In this document: one piece after another, positions 1-9,361 of the stretch
Position numbering within the stretch: the first letter of the stretch is position 1
Layout: each line of letters starts with the position of its first letter
Assembly (NCBI GenBank): GCA_039802265.1
Contig: JBDRWI010000067.1
Coordinates: 1-11,882, forward strand
DNA from: a candidate division WOR-3 bacterium
GTDB lineage: Bacteria; Hydrothermota; Tepidihabitantia; SM23-42; JAOAFX01
Direction of reading: 5' to 3'
DNA: 11,882 nucleotides
The notes under the pieces: model-generated
Database searches by the model: none
What the model was told of the DNA's origin: nothing
What the model saw: the letters and a program-made list of their open reading frames with translations, nothing else
Program-made: the position numbers and the translations under genes

Positions 1-3000
1 TAAAGACTAAATGTAAAACGCCATTATCATAGACAATTTTTTCTCCATTCCCTGCGGTTGCACTTGAATCGCTTGAAGTCAAATAGGAGATTGAGAATAT
101 ATCATTGCTCATATCCGTACCTGTATTATTCGCAATGTCTTTGGAGACTACTTTTATTAAACAATTATCCGATGGATGTTCAGGCACAGTCCAGTTATAC
201 TGATAAGAGGCAATCGGCTCAAAGATTGTATCTATTCCCGTTACATTATGCCAGTCTGCACCACTGTTGGTTGAATAGTAGATGGTCTGTAGTCCAATCC
301 TCGTTGTGTCTGTCACATTCCAGATTATTGGATAGACACTACCAATCTCAAGTTTTTCTCCACCATTGGGTTGAATAACTTGAACAAGGGGTGGTTCGGT
401 ATCCTCACCAATGAATAACCTCTTTATCGTTCCCCCATGGTCGCCGGTCCACGAAGAATAGGCAAAATGCTCAAGACGGAGTTCCTTTATAACCTCCGGT
501 ATCGCATTGTATTCAGCAATATAATCACTGCGTATGTTTCTATAGAACCACTCCCAGGTATTGTAATGCGGTGTCTGGTCGCCCATATCAACCCAGCCAG
601 TATTCTGCCACCAGTTTGAGGCATTCTTTGCATAATACAACCACCTATCCTGCCCTTGATTATCATGAATCAACAAGCCCAATATCAAACTGTGGTCCCT
701 ATCATACTGCTCCCAGTAGACTATCGTGTGCTCTTCTACTGGAAGATCTGTGATATCATTTCGGAGTGTTGGGTGATAATCTGTCCAAAATGCACCTTCG
801 CCCTGATTTCCGTTGTTATCAATATAAAGCCTGACCGAATCACCATCAGCAATGCACTTCAAAATGGCATTTGGGTCATTGCCTAAAATTTCCGCATACC
901 AATGATTATTATAAGGAAACTTGCGCCAAACTTTAATATCGTCAATATAGGCACGAAACTCACCGGTCTCTGCATTTTGTCCATCATCGTAGACAACTAA
1001 AATATTATCCAAAATCTCACCCGCTGCAGGTGTAAGATTGAATATATACTCCACCCATTGGTCCTGGTCCGAAACAGTATGGACTGCTGGGTGAATCCAA
1101 GTCCCGTTCTGGTCAATTATCCAGCCGTATTGATTATGCCAGAAATTCTTAAGATTCAAACCGCCCCAGGTTATCCCATCCAGAGAAATATGACCATAAT
1201 TGCCAGGTGATTTGGCAACATTTATTTTAAAAGAGATAAAAGTCGGATCATCAGTAATCAATAGATTTTCATCAAAGACCTTAAAGATCGCATAACTGTT
1301 AGCATCTGTACTTATGTCCTCCCCTTTTATAAGATATGCCCATTCACTACCATTGGGCGGAACTGGTAATTTATAAAGTCCAGCCGAGTCTGATGTGATG
1401 CATTGCTTATTTTTTTCTAAAATGCAATTTTCTAAAGGTTGCGTATGGGTAGGCTCAAAACCTGAATATGAGAAAGCGCTTCTATCTTCAGTAAATCTTA
1501 AATCCTTTATTGAGCAACCATGGTCGCCGCTCCAATCTTTTCTTGAATAATGGCCGAGTCTCACTGCCTTTAAAATCTTTGGCGAAGTGCCATATTCATT
1601 ATAAAAATCATTATAGACATTTCTTGAAAAACCTTCCCATTTGTTATAATTGTATCTCTGGGTTGGGTCACCCATATCAACAACCCCAATTTCCGACCAG
1701 TGATTTGGGGCATTCGGCGCATAAGTTAGCCAGCGGTCATCCCCCTGCTCATCCTGAATCAATAGCGAATATAAAGATGCAGTGGCTAAATCATATTGCT
1801 GCCAGTAGATAAGCAATTTTTCTCCAACCGTGATATCAGGAATATCTTTTCGCAGCCAAGGCACACTGCTCCAAAATGTATCAGGATATGCACCCTGATT
1901 ATCCAGCATTAATCTCACACCATCATCGGATTGTGGTTCAAACCGAACACTGGCATTGGTATCATTGGGTGCAACCTCAAAATACCAGGTATTTTCCAGT
2001 GGGAATTGGGAGAATATCTGTATGTCATCAATATAAGCAACGAAGTTGCCGGTCTCTTGTGGGTCACGGTCATCATAAATGAGTTCAAGATAGTCAATTG
2101 TCTCACCCGCCGCAGGATTGAGGGTAAAGATATATTGAACCCACTGTCCTTTTGGTGCGCTATGCCAGGCTGGATGGATAATCTGCGAGGTCTGGTCTAT
2201 TATCCGATTGTATTTTGTCCAGGCCCTCAAAATCTTGCCTGATTTCGTATGGCAATCAACACAGATATGACCGGAGTCCGTAGGCGCTTCTTTTACATAT
2301 ATCCAAAAGGAAAGATAGTTATTACTGGTGATTGGAAAGTCATAGTCCAGTATCTTAAAAATGACATAATTATTGCCTGATGTCCCATAGTCATTGCCAT
2401 AAATTTTATACATCTTATCACCAGAGTGTGGATTTACACCGCCCTCTGGACCACTCCGTAGAGCACCATAATTATTTACACCATCAACACCAATAAGAGT
2501 GTTTTCCAGACATGGTGCATCGCCATCTTCAAAACCGCAATAATTGAAAGTAGTAATTGAAAAAGTAAAATCACTCTCATCCCTTGTTTTATTTCCCGCA
2601 TAATCCGAAACCACGACCAGTATTTTACAATCACTTGAATTAACATAAGGCACAAGCCAGTCATAACTTCTTGTATCACCAGAAAGATTAACCACAATTG
2701 GCTCCCAAGTATTACCACCGTCCGTTGTAAGCAAAATAGAATCAATTTTTGCAATCACAACATTGTCCTCAGCAGTCCAGGTAATAGTATGAACTTCACC
2801 AGCATAGAAACTCTCGCCTCCGTTTGGAAAGACCATAGTAGTCTTTGGTAGTATTTCTACTTTCCTGAATGTAAGATAAAATTGGGTATTGGTTGAATTG
2901 CCTTCAGTCCAGATAACATAAAGAGCATCTTTTTGTGGAGAAATATCAGCATGAGGGTAAATTGACCAGCGGCCGGCAGTTTGAGATAAATTTACGGGTG

Positions 3001-5605
3001 GCGATGCCTGTCCATCATACACTTCAGCGTAATAAATGTTTTTGTTTTTCTCCCAGACGACATAATTATTATTAGCAACAATCCCCCAGTCACCATTATC
3101 TATAATCACAGGGGCCGATAAAATGTAGTTTGCACCATCCCACACGAGATTATGATAATCAATTTTATACCCACCTGATGAATTTGTCAAAACTAAACTG
3201 AGAGTATCAGTGCTACCAGAAAGATATGGGTGAAGACCATACGCAAGCCATTGCTCATCTGACCACGAACCCCCTGAAAAATTTCTATATCTAAAGTAAA
3301 TGTCCGCATAATCTTCATATGTGCTGTAAACGAGGGCAAGTCTACCTGATAAATCATAGGCAACACAAGGATTGTAGCGCCAGTTTGCGATGGGACGTTG
3401 GCTATAAGCACTGGTTTGAAGCGAGAAACTTGAAACCCAGATATTGTGATTCGGCCCTTCCTCAATCGCAACAAACCCACTATCCTGGGCAATAATAAAT
3501 GAAATTGGCCGCATCGGTGCTGGTTGGGGATGTTGGTCAGGACCTTCATCTTTAGGATAAGGACCATATTCTACTAAAAAGATTTTCTTGTGTTGCCATG
3601 AGGTTGTATAATAGGAATGATAAAACTCCAAGACCCAATACCACGGTTTGGGCATACCATAATACCAGGTATTATACCATTTACCCCAGACAATGTGTGA
3701 TTTGCCCTGTTGGTCTACAGCAATCGCTGGATAATTTTTATCGCAACCAGCAACACTCTGGATAACCGAAAATGTATTGCCCTCGTCGGTAGATAATGCA
3801 TCCTTTACATCGTGCTGATAATTATCGTAGTAAACAACATAAATATTCTGGGGATTTTGAGGGTCTACTGCAATCTTATTGCCTGTGTTATATGCAGTCA
3901 TCAATGAATCATCCGTTGCTAAGGCACCAGCAACCTTCCCTTTTTCATTTGAAAAAGATGAGATGTGGTTTTGGTCGTCAACAGCAACAACGCGATAGGT
4001 ATATAGAGTGTAAAGTGTTACAGTATTATCAGAGAAAGTATCAGTAGGCGCATTTACCCAACCATAGCCCTCTTGCCAACCCCCATTGTTTACTTTTCTA
4101 TCAATTCTAAATTGATTAGAGTGTGCCGATTTATCCTGCCATTTAATAACCATCCGATGTGGAGTTTCAAATCTATCCGCTACTGAGAGTAAACTTGGTT
4201 CATTAAGCCAGGGAACAGAGACTGATATAGTCGCAGAAGGAGACAATAAATTCCCTTGTTTTGCGCACACCTCATATTCATAGATTGTGCCTCTATTGAC
4301 TGTATTATCCACCCAGTAGGTTTGTTCTGGTGAGGAAGTGCCAATTTGGGACCAGGAACCTCCTGCAATCCTTCTTCTAATTACATAACAATCAATCACC
4401 TTGGGCACCGAATAATCCCAGCGGATTTTTACTTCGTCTTCTTTGGCATAATCACAGCGGAGATTGGTAACCGGGTCAGGGGTATAACCAACTTCGTTGA
4501 AGAATTTGGCGATAAGTTCAGCGGTAGATTTGCAGGCAAGCGGCATCATTGCTTTTGCGACCATTGTTTTTTGGTCATTATGGCCACCCCACATCCAGGA
4601 GGCCCAGGTGGGCAAGCCATCACAAAAATAGAGATAACCCCTGGCAGTATTCCCAAGGTCAACGACTTTATCACTCACATCAAAATTGGGATTTAATGCA
4701 GCTGAATTGGGATAAAATTGAGTTTCCGAAAGCGCTACAACATCGCACGTATCCTCATACCAGCCATGACCAATTTGCGCCATTAATCCATAAAGCCCGG
4801 CAGGCGCGCGATGATTGGGTTGAACACCATCCTGAATAAAATGACATGCTCGTCCTAACCAGCGCAAAGCCTGGGTTCTATTACCAGAATTCCATTCTTG
4901 TTTTGCCCAATTGTAATACTCTTCGCATATATTATGCGCATGACCAATTGTCCAAAAAGTCTGCGGCGATGTGCTACGCCCGTGGGCTAATGGGCAGAAT
5001 CCGAGGTAAATGGTATTTTTGTTACCAAAAGTTGCAAAATTATCTGGCCACATCGCGCTCACGGCAAGATTCTGCGCATAAGTGTAGTCAGGATAATTTG
5101 CTTTATCAGTCACAGTAAAAACTGAGGAACCGATTAAACCCCACAGTCCTGAAGTTAGTAATTCTCCAGCAGTCAAGCCTGGCCCCCAAACCCAGATTAA
5201 CGCTGCCAAAAGAAAAACTCCACCTACAACACCCCCAGTGATATCCTTAAGACCATTTTCATTTGCCCAACATCTAATTGTATCACCAAGAACAAAACTA
5301 CCTGGCAACCGGTCTATCAAATATCCAACCGTAGTCTGCTGCACTTTCATTGTCGGATGGACCTCTGTGCCCCAGAGACACATATTGGATGGAGCACTGT
5401 CTGGATACTGAAAAGTAGTGGAATAAGGGAAATTAACGCGTTCGTTGAAAATGTTATAGTGAACATATTTAGCATAGCCAGAATAATTTGCATTATTTAA
5501 GAGGTATGTTGTTTTAATTGTAATTCGGCCATGAGTATTGCCCCAATACCCATTTACACAACACCAAGGCAATAACATAATGAATACAATCAATAATTTT
5601 TTCAT
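1..5605 (-). CDS. Giant secreted multidomain protein, 3' partial (>1868 aa): signal peptide, Zn-dependent phospholipase C/S1-P1 nuclease-like domain, 2x FN3, propeller-like region, Ig-like (PNGGE) domains, duplicated beta-sandwich modules
   Basis: Manual translation from ATG at 5605 (SD-like AAGGGGA just upstream) has no stop down to base 1, which explains its absence from the ORF track. It starts MKKLLIVFIMLLPWCCVNG|YWGNTHGRI. Zn-ligand motifs: H25, WPD188, LAH208, LGRACH255FIQD259, QPNH265, H280GWYE284. FN3-like units lie at about 4480-4210 (PDPVTNL..IRW..YEYEV) and 4205-3930 (IKWQD..YTYRVVAVD). A propeller-like region lies at about 3920-2860. PNGGE Ig-like units lie at about 2850-2560 and 400-90. 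Confidence 0.93.
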   Translation of the reverse strand, partial: MKKLLIVFIMLLPWCCVNGYWGNTHGRITIKTTYLLNNANYSGYAKYVHYNIFNERVNFPYSTTFQYPDSAPSNMCLWGTEVHPTMKVQQTTVGYLIDRLPGSFVLGDTIRCWANENGLKDITGGVVGGVFLLAALIWVWGPGLTAGELLTSGLWGLIGSSVFTVTDKANYPDYTYAQNLAVSAMWPDNFATFGNKNTIYLGFCPLAHGRSTSPQTFWTIGHAHNICEEYYNWAKQEWNSGNRTQALRWLGRACHFIQDGVQPNHRAPAGLYGLMAQIGHGWYEDTCDVVALSETQFYPNSAALNPNFDVSDKVVDLGNTARGYLYFCDGLPTWASWMWGGHNDQKTMVAKAMMPLACKSTAELIAKFFNEVGYTPDPVTNLRCDYAKEDEVKIRWDYSVPKVIDCYVIRRRIAGGSWSQIGTSSPEQTYWVDNTVNRGTIYEYEVCAKQGNLLSPSATISVSVPWLNEPSLLSVADRFETPHRMVIKWQDKSAHSNQFRIDRKVNNGGWQEGYGWVNAPTDTFSDNTVTLYTLYTYRVVAVDDQNHISSFSNEKGKVAGALATDDSLMTAYNTGNKIAVDPQNPQNIYVVYYDNYQHDVKDALSTDEGNTFSVIQSVAGCDKNYPAIAVDQQGKSHIVWGKWYNTWYYGMPKPWYWVLEFYHSYYTTSWQHKKIFLVEYGPYPKDEGPDQHPQPAPMRPISFIIAQDSGFVAIEEGPNHNIWVSSFSLQTSAYSQRPIANWRYNPCVAYDLSGRLALVYSTYEDYADIYFRYRNFSGGSWSDEQWLAYGLHPYLSGSTDTLSLVLTNSSGGYKIDYHNLVWDGANYILSAPVIIDNGDWGIVANNNYVVWEKNKNIYYAEVYDGQASPPVNLSQTAGRWSIYPHADISPQKDALYVIWTEGNSTNTQFYLTFRKVEILPKTTMVFPNGGESFYAGEVHTITWTAEDNVVIAKIDSILLTTDGGNTWEPIVVNLSGDTRSYDWLVPYVNSSDCKILVVVSDYAGNKTRDESDFTFSITTFNYCGFEDGDAPCLENTLIGVDGVNNYGALRSGPEGGVNPHSGDKMYKIYGNDYGTSGNNYVIFKILDYDFPITSNNYLSFWIYVKEAPTDSGHICVDCHTKSGKILRAWTKYNRIIDQTSQIIHPAWHSAPKGQWVQYIFTLNPAAGETIDYLELIYDDRDPQETGNFVAYIDDIQIFSQFPLENTWYFEVAPNDTNASVRFEPQSDDGVRLMLDNQGAYPDTFWSSVPWLRKDIPDITVGEKLLIYWQQYDLATASLYSLLIQDEQGDDRWLTYAPNAPNHWSEIGVVDMGDPTQRYNYNKWEGFSRNVYNDFYNEYGTSPKILKAVRLGHYSRKDWSGDHGCSIKDLRFTEDRSAFSYSGFEPTHTQPLENCILEKNKQCITSDSAGLYKLPVPPNGSEWAYLIKGEDISTDANSYAIFKVFDENLLITDDPTFISFKINVAKSPGNYGHISLDGITWGGLNLKNFWHNQYGWIIDQNGTWIHPAVHTVSDQDQWVEYIFNLTPAAGEILDNILVVYDDGQNAETGEFRAYIDDIKVWRKFPYNNHWYAEILGNDPNAILKCIADGDSVRLYIDNNGNQGEGAFWTDYHPTLRNDITDLPVEEHTIVYWEQYDRDHSLILGLLIHDNQGQDRWLYYAKNASNWWQNTGWVDMGDQTPHYNTWEWFYRNIRSDYIAEYNAIPEVIKELRLEHFAYSSWTGDHGGTIKRLFIGEDTEPPLVQVIQPNGGEKLEIGSVYPIIWNVTDTTRIGLQTIYYSTNSGADWHNVTGIDTIFEPIASYQYNWTVPEHPSDNCLIKVVSKDIANNTGTDMSNDIFSISYLTSSDSSATAGNGEKIVYDNGVLHLVF
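400..2548 (-). repeat. Protein-level tandem duplication of a two-domain module of about 358 aa (about 2548-1475 and 1474-400)
   Basis: Paired motifs: FNYCGFE/FSYSGFE (1074 nt apart), GHICVD/GHISLD, IIDQ..IHPAWH/IIDQ..IHPAVH, ETGNFVAYIDDI/ETGEFRAYIDDI, VDMGD/VDMGD, WSGDHG/WTGDHG. Confidence 0.9.
4490..5548 (-). other. Zn-dependent PLC / P1-nuclease superfamily catalytic domain within the giant ORF
   Basis: The order and local spacing of Y-x4-H, PD, H, HxxxD, PxH and HxxxE match the tri-zinc ligand set of B. cereus PC-PLC and P1 nuclease. The domain ends in a long helix (KSTAELIAKFFNEV). Confidence 0.85.
4836..5374. repeat. 539-bp direct repeat, copy inside the full-length PLC-like gene
   Basis: Base-by-base comparison with 6684..7222 (offset 1848) found no mismatch. 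It encodes WGTEVHP...LGRACHFI. Confidence 0.97.
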
Positions 5606-5621
5606 AATTCCCCTTTTCAAT

Positions 5622-6668
5622 TTAATCCAACTCAAATTTACTAAGTCCTGAAAGTGTAAGAAACCATTTGTTATTGTGCCGGTCAATGAAAATTCCTTTT
5701 ACATATTCATCTAATAACCCTGAATTTCCCGCATTACTATATCCTCCTTGATTATAACTATGATATTCTGTAATATTCCCTTGTGAATATTTTACAATGC
5801 CTAAATTTAGATCAAGCCAAAGATCATTATTTGTATCAAAAGCGAACTTACCCGGACTACAAGCTAAGTAGTCAATTTGCTCTTTTTTCCAAATTCCGTT
5901 AATAAACTTATAAAAAATTAAGTAATAAGGTTCTGGTTTAAATAGACCAGTCCATATTACGCCAGTTCTATCACAAGTCACACCCGAAAAATAGGTAACT
6001 GAATCACCGGTCGAAGGTGAATTGGGTATCCAAAATTTCACCGTCCTATCGAATTGAGCGAAACCTTTTGGTGTGAGACATATAACATTGTTATCTCCAT
6101 CTATTTCCACTGTAATCATGTAATTATCGGGCAAACCATTATTTACGGTGAATGTATCCCACTTTACACCGTCGTATTGCATTATACCCCTTATAGTTCC
6201 AATCCAGATTTTACTACTTTTATCAATTCTAATTACCGTTACCGAATCACTAACTAATCCAGATTGCTTATTATAAGTCCGCCAAATAGTTCCATCATAG
6301 ATTGCAAACCCTTGGTCTTTGAAACCTACATAAAGTTTTCCATTATCGGCACCATAAACATCAGATACAAACACTGGTTCACTTATACCAATTACGCTCG
6401 CCGGTATTCTTTGCCAGTTTTTCCCATCAAAGCGAAATAACCCTTCGGTTCCGTTGACTTCACCACCCATCCAGATATTCCCCTGCAAATCATCAGTCAT
6501 ACAAGTTGGGAATACTTCAGGATAATTCACCCAGCCAATCATCTCTTCGGGGGTTGGTGACTGGATATCATACTGGCCAATATGACCCAGTTCCCAGCAA
6601 CCAGTTACAAAAACTATCATTAAACTGAACCACAACACGATTATTAAATTAAAAAATAATCTTTTCAT
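5622..6668 (-). CDS. Beta-propeller lipoprotein B (two-component-regulator-propeller-like repeats), 348 aa; candidate immunity or partner protein
   Basis: The probable start is ATG 6668 rather than 6695. It has an AAAGGA SD, an ATGA overlap with the upstream stop and a lipoprotein signal MKRLFF...VTG|C24. Repeats such as GLVSDSVTVIRIDKSSKIWIGT and GLPDNYMITVEIDGDNNV resemble Reg_prop blades. Confidence 0.9.
   Translation of the reverse strand: MKRLFFNLIIVLWFSLMIVFVTGCWELGHIGQYDIQSPTPEEMIGWVNYPEVFPTCMTDDLQGNIWMGGEVNGTEGLFRFDGKNWQRIPASVIGISEPVFVSDVYGADNGKLYVGFKDQGFAIYDGTIWRTYNKQSGLVSDSVTVIRIDKSSKIWIGTIRGIMQYDGVKWDTFTVNNGLPDNYMITVEIDGDNNVICLTPKGFAQFDRTVKFWIPNSPSTGDSVTYFSGVTCDRTGVIWTGLFKPEPYYLIFYKFINGIWKKEQIDYLACSPGKFAFDTNNDLWLDLNLGIVKYSQGNITEYHSYNQGGYSNAGNSGLLDEYVKGIFIDRHNNKWFLTLSGLSKFELD
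6196..6599. repeat. 404-bp near-identical direct repeat (lipoprotein B 5' half)
   Basis: Aligns without gaps to 8068..8471 (offset 1872) with about 21 mismatches by manual count and only 4 amino-acid changes. Confidence 0.95.
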
Positions 6669-7471
6669 GATAATTCCTTTTTTATAAAATGACATGCTCG
6701 TCCTAACCAGCGCAAAGCCTGGGTTCTATTACCAGAATTCCATTCTTGTTTTGCCCAATTGTAATACTCTTCGCATATATTATGCGCATGACCAATTGTC
6801 CAAAAAGTCTGCGGCGATGTGCTACGCCCGTGGGCTAATGGGCAGAATCCGAGGTAAATGGTATTTTTGTTACCAAAAGTTGCAAAATTATCTGGCCACA
6901 TCGCGCTCACGGCAAGATTCTGCGCATAAGTGTAGTCAGGATAATTTGCTTTATCAGTCACAGTAAAAACTGAGGAACCGATTAAACCCCACAGTCCTGA
7001 AGTTAGTAATTCTCCAGCAGTCAAGCCTGGCCCCCAAACCCAGATTAACGCTGCCAAAAGAAAAACTCCACCTACAACACCCCCAGTGATATCCTTAAGA
7101 CCATTTTCATTTGCCCAACATCTAATTGTATCACCAAGAACAAAACTACCTGGCAACCGGTCTATCAAATATCCAACCGTAGTCTGCTGCACTTTCATTG
7201 TCGGATGGACCTCTGTGCCCCATCTAACAAACGTATCCGGGTCTATTGGTGAGATATTATTAGGAGGATGCCATATATTACATTCTTGCAAATATTGGCG
7301 ATTGCTATTATAGATTTGGTAGTAGATGTATTTTGCGACACCTGTATAACCCCCATTCTCTAAAAGCATAGGTGCTTTCAGCATAATACGTCCGTGCGTT
7401 CCACCTTGATACCCCTCATTGACAAATGGAATTAAAACAATAAATACAAATGGAACAATAAATTTTTTCAC
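6665..7471 (-). pseudogene. Truncated (orphan) N-terminal PLC/P1-like cassette, about 268 aa
   Basis: The probable start is GTG 7471 after GAGGTG, giving MKKFIVPFVFIVLIPFVNEG|YQGGTHGRI. The N-terminus diverges from the giant ORF, the next segment is identical, and the ORF ends ...ACHFIKKELS*. It lacks the D, H, H and E ligands that follow in the full-length copy. It may still be translated. Confidence 0.85.
6684..7222. repeat. 539-bp direct repeat, copy inside the truncated cassette
   Basis: Identical to 4836..5374. Confidence 0.97.
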
Positions 7472-7490
7472 AATCACCTCACATTTTTTA

Positions 7491-8528
7491 TTACTCTAAT
7501 TCATACCTACTCGTGCCACACCAGCTGGTAAACTCTTTAAGGTATTTATTTGTGGCAAACCATTTATTATTTTTTCGATCAATGTAAACAAAAGAAATCG
7601 CATTATTTAATAACCCACAATTCCCTCTTGGGTCATTATAATTAATCCTTGCATGACTATAAAAATCTTTCCACTCGTTATTTTCAAACTTCGATACCCC
7701 ATACCAGGCTATCCAAATATTATTTTTTGAATCAAAATCAAATACCGATGAACTCCTTCCGATATCTTTCTTACTGATATTCCCGTTTTCAAAAATGAAA
7801 AATTTACCTCCCACTCCCATCTGCTCGGGGAACCAAATTCTGCCATTCCTATCTAAAACTAGAGAGTGAAGAGCATAAATCGCCCCAGTGTCTACTAAGA
7901 AAGATTGCCATTCATTACCATTGTAAAAGGCGAATCCGCTATCTGTGAGACAGAGAATAAATCCATATCCATCAATTTCTAAATCAAGAATTTTATTACT
8001 CGGTAATCCATCATTTACCGTGAATGTCTCCCAAGTCGTTAAGTTTGTTCTCGTTAGTCCCGATTTTGTTCCAATCCAGATTTTACTACTTTTATCAATT
8101 CTAATTACCGTTACCGAATCACTAACTAATCCAGATTGTTTATTATAAGTCCGCCAAATAGTTCCATCATAGATTGCAAACCCTTGGTCTTTGAAACCTA
8201 CATAAAGTTTTCCATTATCGGCGCCATAAACATCAGATACAAACACTGGTTCACTTATACTGATTACACTCGCCGGTATTCTCTGCCAGTTTTCTCCATC
8301 AAAGCGGAATAATCCTTCGGTTCCACTAACTTCCCCACCCATCCAGATATTCCCCTGCAAATCATCAGTCATACAAGTTGGGAATACTTCAGGATAATTC
8401 ACCCAACCAATCATCTCTTCCGGGGTTGGTGACTGGATATCATGCTGCCCAATATGACCTAATTCCCAACAGTTTATTGTAAAAATAATAAACAAAACAA
8501 GGAGCATAATTTCTAATTTGTTTCTCAT
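7491..8528 (-). CDS. Beta-propeller lipoprotein A, 345 aa; paralog of 5622..6668
   Basis: Hydrophobic signal ending at C20 (FTINC, a weak lipobox), AGGA SD and ATGA overlap with the upstream gene. The N-terminal half is nearly identical to lipoprotein B. The C-terminal half is divergent but still propeller-like and ends SRYELE versus SKFELD. Confidence 0.9.
   Translation of the reverse strand: MRNKLEIMLLVLFIIFTINCWELGHIGQHDIQSPTPEEMIGWVNYPEVFPTCMTDDLQGNIWMGGEVSGTEGLFRFDGENWQRIPASVISISEPVFVSDVYGADNGKLYVGFKDQGFAIYDGTIWRTYNKQSGLVSDSVTVIRIDKSSKIWIGTKSGLTRTNLTTWETFTVNDGLPSNKILDLEIDGYGFILCLTDSGFAFYNGNEWQSFLVDTGAIYALHSLVLDRNGRIWFPEQMGVGGKFFIFENGNISKKDIGRSSSVFDFDSKNNIWIAWYGVSKFENNEWKDFYSHARINYNDPRGNCGLLNNAISFVYIDRKNNKWFATNKYLKEFTSWCGTSRYELE
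8068..8471. repeat. 404-bp near-identical direct repeat (lipoprotein A 5' half)
   Basis: Partner of 6196..6599. Similarity begins exactly at the codon for the predicted lipidated Cys. Confidence 0.95.
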
Positions 8529-9361
8529 AGTTCCTTTCCTTTTTTTATCAAAATGCTCAATCCTAAATATACTTTATAATAACGCCACAACCACCAAGCG
8601 TTACGGAAACTGCGCACTTCACCTTGCTCAACCATCTCGGTTTGTAAAGAATATTCATCAAACGCTTGTTTAGGTAAAAAACAGAGACCACAGCGGAAAT
8701 AACTGGGTAAATTCTGCTTAACATTAAATTTGAAACTTACCCCTATAATATATGCTAAAAGATTCTCTTTTGACCATCGTTTCTCACCCAGACGATAGAA
8801 TTCGCCCTGTGAATAGAAACCCTCACCCATCAACCATAACCTTTCACTCAAAGCAAATTGTAAACCAAATCCTAACATCGGCACAATCTTTAACTTCATC
8901 TTATCAAGATAGAAATCTAAAGGCCCCAAACTCTTACCAAAATTATTCCAGCCATAATTGGCAAAGGCGTGCAAGGTAATTATCTGCCCTGAATGTTTAC
9001 TTAAAACTAAACATCCCCGCAGACCAGTAAGATAACGTCCAGATATTGAACCCCAACCTTTCGCCTCAATTTCTGTACTAATGGCAACTGGTTTACTCTC
9101 AAAGTCATCCCATAAGCCAAACTTGAAACCCAATGCACCATAATAATTCCAATAATCGCCTTTTGCAGTATACCATAACGCCCCGGATAAAAGTTCAACA
9201 TTTTTATTAAGTCCGTAGCGCAAATGAAAAGGGAAATTCCAAGTCAACGCCTTTTGCTCAAGCACATAAGCACTTGGCACAACAAAAATCGGTTCACTCC
9301 GCCAAACTTGATTATTAGGGGTAAAAGTTAAAAAAATAAAATTAAAGATTATTATATTCAT
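8525..9361 (-). CDS. Hypothetical protein, probable outer-membrane beta-barrel, 278 aa
   Basis: Hydrophobic N-terminus and alternating amphipathic strands rich in Gly and aromatics (LRYGL, LGFKFGL, LHAFANYG, GFGLQFAL, IIGVSFKF, VYLGLSI). ATGA overlaps occur at both ends. Confidence 0.7.
   Translation of the reverse strand: MNIIIFNFIFLTFTPNNQVWRSEPIFVVPSAYVLEQKALTWNFPFHLRYGLNKNVELLSGALWYTAKGDYWNYYGALGFKFGLWDDFESKPVAISTEIEAKGWGSISGRYLTGLRGCLVLSKHSGQIITLHAFANYGWNNFGKSLGPLDFYLDKMKLKIVPMLGFGLQFALSERLWLMGEGFYSQGEFYRLGEKRWSKENLLAYIIGVSFKFNVKQNLPSYFRCGLCFLPKQAFDEYSLQTEMVEQGEVRSFRNAWWLWRYYKVYLGLSILIKKGKEL

Follow-up and report, generated by a model that had tools for sequence, protein, structure and literature searches.

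A probable tandem stack of two allelic front-end cassettes at the locus of a giant, putatively type IX-secreted surface protein from an uncultured hot-spring phylum

Results

Anatomy of the locus

The stretch of DNA studied here, hereafter the window, is the whole of contig JBDRWI010000067.1 (C67; 11,882 bp), which was assigned to a metagenome bin of a candidate division WOR-3 bacterium (GCA_039802265.1; 2.3 Mb, 110 contigs, estimated completeness 89%). Every gene of the window lies on the minus strand. Its middle part holds two tandem units, A upstream and B downstream, each made of a gene for a putative lipoprotein followed by the beginning of a gene for an exported enzyme of the zinc-dependent phospholipase C (Zn-PLC) family (Table 1). 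Only unit B runs on into a giant gene; in unit A, the lipoprotein gene is intact and the enzyme gene is a mere fragment. Both units contain two conserved arms, arm 1 in the first half of the lipoprotein gene and arm 2 in the enzyme gene. The blocks between the arms comprise the second half of the lipoprotein gene, the spacer and the first 77 enzyme codons, and their identity between units is 32-63% in 60-column windows. We refer to this variable block as the cassette, to its versions as types, and to residues 1-77 of the enzyme as the tip. The tip consists of the signal peptide and ~57 mature residues, a length that a first-pass annotation of this DNA had put, correctly, at about 60.

The two copies of arm 2 are identical at 539 of 539 bases with a spacing of 1848 bp, and the whole bin genome contains no further copy. 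Those of arm 1 (6072-6599 and 7944-8471) are 87% identical over 531 columns. Within the arm 1 core, at 6182-6585 and an offset of 1872, 380 of 404 bases match (94%), and identity reaches 95.7% at 6196-6571. Both spacings are divisible by three. Repeats of this length and identity cannot be due to chance in 11.9 kb. With arm 2 matching throughout and arm 1 at 94-96%, the layout of the first-pass annotation is well founded: two tandem units that share conserved arms, the upstream one being an orphan with a truncated enzyme gene. Being identical and in frame, the arms could permit a RecA-type deletion that replaces tip B by tip A in the expressed protein in a single event, or one that drops unit A.

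Unit A ends at a novel junction, where arm 2 gives way to the last bases before the start codon of lipoprotein B. The two sides of the junction have ~2 nt in common. The start codon of the enzyme fragment is a GTG that follows GAGG. The fragment's frame stays open into the junction tail and stops on an ATGA overlap with the start of the next lipoprotein gene. The same overlap is found in the stack of a second genome, G013, described below.

Table 1. Features of the window, all on the minus strand, with the units and their arms first and the neighbouring genes last.
Feature	Position	Strand	Evidence or remarks
Lipoprotein A	8528-7491	-	345 aa, intact; Reg_prop beta-propeller; C-half is cassette type A
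Enzyme fragment ("orphan A")	7477-6665	-	270 aa; type A tip, arm 2 and 5-residue tail
Lipoprotein B	6668-5622	-	348 aa from ATG at 6668; C-half is cassette type B
Giant gene	5605-2	-	First 1868 codons; runs off the contig
Arm 1, upstream copy	7944-8471	-	Lipoprotein N-half, about blades 1-3 (model)
Arm 1, downstream copy	6072-6599	-	Mosaic of G007-like and lipoprotein-A-like tracts
Arm 2, upstream copy	6684-7222	-	
Arm 2, downstream copy	4836-5374	-	Giant residues 78-257
Novel junction	6669-6685	-	End of arm 2 joined to the last 16 nt before the lipoprotein B start codon; contig of run X1
Hypervariable patch within arm 2	5046-5290, twin ~6894-7138	-	Identity drop relative to G007
p278	9361-8525	-	No family match
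p204, DUF3108-like exported protein	9972-9358	-	Pfam DUF3108_like, 35.5 bits
Promoter-like site before p204	10213-10186	-	12/12 consensus matches
Large protein, 3' end only	11880-10210	-	CBM- and BNR-like modules

Public-run contigs at the locus

The evidence from public sequencing runs consists of assembled contigs (Logan) rather than reads, and no read spans arm 2. At 539 bp, arm 2 exceeds the typical short-read length, and it is the assembler, together with graph logic, that assigns each tip to its copy of arm 2. In run X1, contigs end exactly at the borders of arm 2, and arm 2 forms a separate contig of 539 bp. Its depth (40.6) is near the sum of the depths of the giant body (24.2) and the A block (15.2). 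Moreover, an X1 contig of 172 bp covers the junction at 6542-6713 with a depth of 21.5, and no other entry into the leader of lipoprotein B was reported among the X1 contigs. Because exact stretches within arm 1 do not exceed 83 nt, reads, if at least ~100 nt long, would connect p278A with the A block and, likewise, the B block with the junction. Two alleles of a single unit would form a bubble in the assembly graph, while a tandem requires the junction, and a 2-nt overlap is too short for a graph join. Hence, the data point to a tandem rather than to two alleles, and the stack is probably real.

Other runs contain other arrangements. A contig of run X5, which comes from another study and is ~96-97% identical to the window, runs from lipoprotein B straight into p278 and thus represents a single type B unit. 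In run X4, the leader of lipoprotein B continues into other sequence past 6685, and the A block is without cover; for X4 and X5 alike, window parts devoid of contig cover are not evidence of absence. Contigs of X1 depart from the window at 8480, in the leader of lipoprotein A, and at 6895, at the edge of the hypervariable patch of arm 2, the latter departure being also present in run X2. These two departures suggest that the same community may harbour more variants of the locus.

Related loci

A second stack is found in G013. It comprises p275, a first lipoprotein and a 300-aa enzyme fragment, both of type B, followed by a second lipoprotein and an enzyme, both of type C. The fragment ends in QDGVQPNHR followed by ISL, 8 residues past the cut seen in the window, and the junction is located ~20-30 nt before the start of the second lipoprotein gene. 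The G013 arms are 73% alike over 258 bp, and for this reason the assembly of this stack is unambiguous. The G013 stack is an independent event, with B as the displaced unit. The layout was re-found in a second genome with another junction and other cassette types.

Genome G007, which belongs to another genus, carries a single unit of type B. At locus L010, a type A lipoprotein half is followed by a type A enzyme that runs past the CHFI motif near the end of the window's fragment, which indicates that type A is a working allele elsewhere. The variable half of lipoprotein A is 86-97% identical to the L010 gene at the nucleotide level over most of its length. The lipoprotein C-half and the tip, which are contiguous DNA, change type together in all 7 units available (window A and B, G007, G013 units 1 and 2, L010 and the X5 contig), and these comprise 3 types.

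The enzyme domain was detected in 3 of the 131 genomes of the class and in 6 of the 271 genomes of the phylum. Among 1.84 billion representative proteins, 53 matched the enzyme at E <= 1e-3 and only 3 at E <= 1e-30, and a near-length search of a set of 5.8 billion proteins returned 4 matches. The latter set yielded 11 lipoprotein matches at E <= 1e-10, with 6 true family members at E <= 1e-50. Pattern searches recovered one locus among 143 matches in metagenome contigs, on a contig of 1.9 kb, and none among 49 matches in genome contigs. Full-length lipoprotein homologs occur only in the three class genomes that also have the enzyme. In the other 44 class genomes with a lipoprotein match, this match is weak and partial, mostly to Reg_prop proteins of ~700 aa; two more homologs, 35-37% identical, lie on short contigs. 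From this co-occurrence, the lipoprotein and the enzyme appear to belong together.

Exchange and conversion

Relative to G007, nucleotide identity of the window is 99-100% over most of 650-6245, 88-91% below 650 and 84-98% in the upstream genes. Inside arm 2, however, a hypervariable patch departs from this pattern: identity to G007 drops to 85, 50, 70 and 80% in 60-column windows and to 73% in a 200-nt window (5046-5245), while the flanks are identical to G007. This patch is the same in both arm 2 copies of the window, yet it differs from G007, G013 and L010. In lipoprotein B, arm 1 switches back and forth between tracts resembling G007 and tracts resembling lipoprotein A, and it shows dense differences from run X5 at 6267-6371; in the patch of arm 2, a contig of X5 replaces 5144-5237. 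In the comparison of type A between the window and L010, the synonymous divergence (dS) is 0.43-0.46 in the cassette and 0.80 and 2.15 in the arms. Since dS is lower in the cassette, this block sits in different arm backgrounds. Together with the identity profiles, this result agrees with the earlier proposal that the variable block moves as one unit. Altogether, the mosaic patterns denote several exchanges and at least one conversion between the copies.

The variable region is also larger than the cassette. The 3' third of p278 (8446-8845) is 65-67% identical to G007 at the nucleotide level, and the C-terminal third of the protein is of a type other than those of G007 and G013. Along p278, amino acid identity to G007 in 40-column windows is 100, 98, 78, 98, 78, 50 and 61%. 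Because the first third is 98-100% identical and the last 50-61%, the variable region starts upstream of the lipoprotein gene. The first-pass annotation had overlooked this segment, as well as the second hypervariable patch within arm 2 and the fact that the copies had already been mixed by gene conversion.

The ratio of non-synonymous to synonymous divergence (dN/dS) ranges from 0.04 to 0.38 across all segments, with values of 0.04-0.08 for arm 2 and 0.14-0.19 for lipoprotein A against L010. These ratios give no sign of positive selection, with the proviso that between types dS, at up to 2.15, comes close to saturation.

The enzyme domain and the giant protein

The giant protein starts with a signal peptide and a Zn-PLC-family domain (~residues 20-375), followed by FN3-like modules, a BNR-rich region, Ig-like domains and repeated modules. 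Its N-terminal 400-aa piece matches Pfam Zn_dep_PLPC (PF00882) with 28.2 bits against a cut-off of 26.8, and a match was obtained for 5/5 enzyme copies. Scans of whole proteins fall just under this cut-off (26.2 bits for the window giant and 25.2 for the G007 giant). When the five enzyme copies are combined into a profile, it retrieves the Clostridium perfringens alpha-toxin N-domain at E 9e-5, and the zinc ligands H-x3-D-x5-H...H-x3-E are aligned. Residues H255, D259, H265 and H280, and near the mature N-terminus also H25, are invariant in 5/5 sequences, and a distant homolog with 30% identity is no exception. Thus, the Pfam and alpha-toxin matches both support the family suggested in the first-pass annotation. 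An AlphaFold2 model of the domain, built from 5 sequences, was unusable (mean predicted local distance difference test score, pLDDT, 32.8).

The upstream fragment ends in CHFI followed by KKELS, where the giant continues ...CHFIQDGVQPNH. It stops two residues past H255, the first His of H-x3-D-x5-H, and is devoid of D259, H265, H280 and E284. Given the loss of these four zinc ligands, the fragment is most probably catalytically dead.

The hypervariable patch encodes an insertion of ~45 residues in the PLC domain (~residues 122-165) with two hydrophobic stretches, which the distant homolog P0016 does not have. This insertion may form a membrane-inserting hairpin. Nowhere does the family as a whole vary more than in the tip and in this putative hairpin.

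The C-terminus of the window giant is beyond the contig end, and its mode of secretion was judged from the G007 ortholog. The latter has 3732 aa, is 96.7% identical over window positions 1-6551, and ends in beta-helix domains and a type A sorting domain for secretion by the type IX system (T9SS), recognized by Por_Secre_tail with 30.6 bits (cut-off 27) and by TIGR04183 with 30.4 bits (cut-off 23). The SprA translocon scores above cut-off in 3/3 genomes (G000, G007 and G013). In view of the sorting domain and of SprA, the giant is predicted to be a T9SS cargo, which refines the earlier statement that it is exported. T9SS cargos are usually anchored by their C-terminus. If this also holds for the giant, the enzyme would be at its far end.

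The giant of G013 (L009, G013:C24, 7208-12122) is broken. A 447-aa frame with the PLC and FN3 parts ends in two stop codons. It is followed by a frame of 1193 aa whose counterpart in the G007 giant is residues 2607-3731, so that ~2170 internal residues are missing.

Three distant giants with the same domain (G251, G265 and G267) have a different partner. The place of the lipoprotein is taken by a repeat protein of ~460 aa with its own T9SS sorting domain. A DUF3108-like gene precedes this protein in G265 and G267, which makes p204 the only upstream neighbour retained there; the third contig is cut before that position. The ~460-aa protein (L055, 2508-3896; L053, 2942-4348) has about seven "YLVVW...DIYGQ" repeats and a propeller-like look. 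Comparison of the 462-aa protein from these loci with the lipoprotein and with p278 revealed no sequence similarity (best E values of 0.047 and 0.52, respectively). The G267 enzyme homolog (L053, G267:C21, 2606-2942) has an open frame that starts at the equivalent of PLC residue 104, with the tip missing or out of frame.

The lipoproteins and the neighbouring genes

Both lipoproteins match Pfam Reg_prop (24.1 and 41.7 bits, cut-off 20.4), and a Cys after a hydrophobic leader was recognized by eye in 7/7 lipoprotein homologs. The AlphaFold2 model of lipoprotein B (mean pLDDT 87.5; predicted template modelling score, pTM, 0.81) is an all-beta propeller with a predicted seven blades. Judging by the strand pattern of this model, the conserved arm would correspond to about blades 1-3 and the variable half to about blades 4-7. 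In Foldseek, the best hits of the model are the Reg_prop sensor propellers of BT4673 and BT4663 (E 6e-16, query-normalised TM-score 0.63-0.66). The NCBIfam PorZ score of the lipoprotein is 37.7 against a cut-off of 260. Complex prediction with PLC residues 19-385 and mature lipoprotein B gave a score of 0.00 in both runs; run without controls, it is uninformative either way. Structural look-alikes of p278 are small outer-membrane beta-barrels, and we regard this solely as a lead.

Genes from p204 through the giant gene overlap or are separated by 13-16 nt, which gives them the look of an operon. It is likely that p204, p278, lipoprotein A, the fragment, lipoprotein B and the giant gene form one transcription unit starting at the promoter-like site upstream of p204, and the fragment would then be transcribed with its neighbours. 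This site is a perfect sigma-70-type match (TTGACA, 16 nt, TATAAT), although a consensus match only. Upstream of it lies the 3' end of another large gene. Its product and the giant have repeated modules of ~330 aa in common, the segment 10237-11211 being 49% and 38% identical to 1892-2854 and 797-1474, respectively. The G007 counterpart of this upstream gene is complete and encodes 1180 aa.

The origin of the contig deserves caution. C67 is 84-100% identical to G007 at the nucleotide level, whereas two 12-kb regions of the bin's other contigs reach only 65-78% against G007 and G013. Against the congeneric genome G014, from which the locus is absent, these regions reach 74-87%. Since C67 resembles G007 and the rest of the bin does not, and since G014 is devoid of the locus, C67 was probably either mis-binned or acquired by a recent transfer between genera. 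Two practical points may be noted: binning has placed C67 in a genome that is unlike it, and gene callers will list the fragment as a separate protein of 270 aa.

Discussion

In this study, we characterized a locus at which a lipoprotein gene and the front end of an enzyme gene are present twice in tandem. The explanation that we prefer, with a probability of roughly 0.6, is that two allelic front-end cassettes truly stand in tandem, stacked by recombination, at a horizontally exchanged hypervariable operon for a T9SS-secreted giant surface protein. The cassette would be a single contiguous block, with lipoprotein blades 4-7, the spacer and the first 77 enzyme codons, between better conserved flanks. 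The stack would result from recombination with a divergent allele. At one end, we infer an illegitimate joining, with ~2 nt of microhomology, of the zinc motif of the enzyme to the last bases before the lipoprotein start codon; at the other end, the exchange would have proceeded by homology. A later gene conversion between the copies may have made 539 bp identical and left arm 1 as a mosaic. According to this scheme, the upstream enzyme piece would be a by-product next to an intact lipoprotein gene, and the extra copy may or may not be used. As to function, we commit only to a co-adapted exported pair of lipoprotein and tip at the far end of a fibre, whose diversity would be driven from outside the cell.

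Several observations weigh against this explanation. The order A-then-B has never been seen directly, given that no read crosses arm 2. Depths in X1 are uneven, with 31.7 for the B block against 24.2 for the giant body, and 21.5 for the junction against 15.2 for the A block. This unevenness indicates that the sample holds a mixture of forms, among which an A-B tandem plus a B-only strain is not separable from other mixtures. In addition, X1 is probably the source sample of the contig, so that its support is not fully independent. As to the order of events, a tandem duplication with later replacement of the upstream cassette fits arm 2 no less well than an insertion with later conversion. The public data searched contain only 3 genomes and ~7 units. 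The junctions of the window and of G013 are each no more than ~30 nt away from a lipoprotein start, and on the enzyme side at most 24 nt separate the two. This clustering is tighter than random illegitimate joining would produce, and it hints at selection or at a preferred site. Finally, given the broken giant of G013, decay rather than function may be behind part of the pattern.

The foremost competing explanation was put forward in the first-pass annotation, and we consider it doubtful. It holds that the locus is a polymorphic effector/immunity system in mirror image, with an antibacterial PLC tip on a T9SS fibre, lipoproteins acting as cognate immunity proteins, and a displaced unit kept for protection against type A neighbours. 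The layout and the exported Zn-PLC that it assumed have stood. With a C-terminal T9SS sorting signal, the variable payload and its displaced copies are expected at the 5' end, mirroring contact-dependent inhibition (CDI) and Rhs loci. Furthermore, the zinc ligands are kept in 5/5 full or partial copies and arm 2 is strongly constrained (dN/dS 0.04-0.08), so that the enzyme looks active, and a folded phospholipase crossing the periplasm of its producer would plausibly need an inhibitor. Co-occurrence of lipoprotein and enzyme is strict, in 3/3 genomes and 5/5 units therein. The displaced lipoprotein A is intact (dN/dS 0.14-0.19 against L010), whereas in both genomes the displaced enzyme breaks off within its catalytic motif, and both insertions brought a complete lipoprotein gene. 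A precedent exists in Vibrio cholerae, where immunity genes are known to be retained after effector displacement (PMC5361080).

Other findings do not fit such a system. There is no variety of toxin folds, as all five copies match Zn_dep_PLPC, and hence no swapping between such folds. The three distant giants carry the same domain without such a lipoprotein, and the protein that replaces it is exported from the periplasm by the T9SS. The C-terminal third of p278 co-varies with the cassette, which an immunity model does not predict, and dN/dS does not exceed 0.38 in the variable parts. Moreover, the fold of the lipoprotein resembles glycan-sensor propellers and PorZ and no known immunity family, and with only three types, co-variation is inseparable from linkage. 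All in all, the effector/immunity explanation is favoured only weakly.

A more specific version of it, to which we give slightly less credence still, is a contact-dependent T9SS weapon. It would consist of a C-anchored fibre of ~3700 residues with an N-terminal zinc phospholipase and its membrane-inserting hairpin, in which a tip that sets specificity and a matching half-propeller immunity lipoprotein are exchanged as a cassette and orphans pile up upstream. As the sorting signal is C-terminal, the N-terminal displacement would then mirror the C-terminal displacement known from Rhs and CDI loci.

Programmed variation, in which the upstream unit would be a silent donor for switching of the fibre tip by conversion or deletion, for escape from phages or predators, appears improbable to us. 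Its appeal stems from the succession of conserved arm, variable core and conserved arm, and from the conversion tract, with arm 2 identical even in a patch unlike G007 and arm 1 a mosaic. The prominence of tip and hairpin among the variable parts of the family points in the same direction, as do the loose ends of X1 at 8480 and 6895, which hint at further variants. Yet there is a single spare copy, with its own start codon and within the operon, and hence not silent. This copy lies upstream in the same orientation, so that a deletion would be irreversible. Within-sample switching was not shown, the deletion product having no novel sequence by which contigs could reveal it. In G013, the divergence of the arms to 73% argues against ongoing exchange.

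Least probable of all is an assembly artefact that threaded the alleles of two co-occurring strains through the shared 539-bp stretch: the source is indeed a metagenome bin of 110 contigs whose divergence from G007 is not matched by that of C67, the sample holds several variants, the arm is longer than typical short reads and the A and B block depths differ two-fold, but two alleles give a bubble, the adjacency of arm 2 and the lipoprotein B leader is present in the independent X1 assembly (6542-6713), the ~2 nt shared at the joint are too short for a graph join, and G013 repeats the layout with diverged arms.

The tandem stack that we favour resembles the displacement arrays of other secretion systems. 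In the V. cholerae clusters for type VI secretion (T6SS), and also at Rhs loci, such arrays are described as products of homology-facilitated illegitimate recombination in which the partner gene is retained; they can also move as blocks through flanking homology (PMC5361080). Likewise, the loci studied here show two independent junctions, retained lipoproteins and truncated enzyme pieces. The ~2-nt junction, the mosaic identity profiles and the second, different junction of G013 are what such a mechanism, which we infer, would leave behind. Unlike in T6SS, Rhs and CDI arrays, the variable part is here N-terminal, the displaced copies lie upstream, the carrier is a predicted T9SS cargo, and a single enzyme fold is involved. 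With regard to polymorphic toxins, orphan modules beside the main gene are found both in the window and in G013, though in mirrored polarity. Alleles do not carry unrelated toxin folds; instead, variation is segmental within the Zn_dep_PLPC fold.

Among FCB (Fibrobacteres-Chlorobi-Bacteroidetes) group bacteria, the TANFOR toxins of Bacteroidetes provide another point of comparison. These are large, Sec-exported, proposed T9SS substrates with a proposed role in interbacterial competition. They follow the usual polarity, in that the N-terminus is conserved, the toxin at the C-terminus varies and the immunity gene lies downstream, and a canonical sorting domain is lacking; their description makes no mention of orphans (PMC7073777). 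The giant differs from them in being variable at the N-terminus and, as deduced from its ortholog, in having a sorting domain at the C-terminus. Its PLC domain is similar to the classical PF00882 enzymes and to the alpha-toxin N-domain in family match and aligned zinc ligands. On the other hand, it heads a T9SS cargo of ~3700 aa, contains an insertion of ~45 residues and has hypervariable first 77 residues, and the first-residue Trp of classical zinc PLCs is not conserved (W, Q or L). The lipoprotein, in turn, is a single free-standing propeller of ~325 residues, unlike the double propellers of BT4673 and BT4663, which are fused to a kinase.

Antigenic variation from silent cassettes is exemplified by pilS/pilE of Neisseria and by the msp2 pseudogenes of Anaplasma. 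The window shares with these systems a variable core between arms, a truncated extra copy and a conversion tract. It departs from them in that there is one spare only, which is predicted to be co-transcribed and translatable and includes an entire further gene, and in that switching was not seen. Where silent-cassette systems have several promoterless, start-less donors and observed switching, the window has one extra copy with a GTG start.

Arrays of spare parts are otherwise known in one polarity, with variable 3' ends and downstream orphans. Here, such an array is found at the 5' end of the gene of a predicted T9SS cargo, independently in two genomes. Our survey of papers on T9SS with polymorphic toxins or phospholipase immunity, largely confined to journals outside subscription, did not turn up N-terminal cassettes or upstream orphans. 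If the lipoprotein is a cognate inhibitor, the T9SS would gain a role in strain-specific antagonism, and the position of the export signal would dictate where toxin diversity and orphan arrays accumulate. If it is not, the locus would still show cleanly, in nature, how the exposed end of a giant surface protein from an uncultured phylum of hot springs is remodelled by illegitimate joining, homologous exchange and gene conversion.

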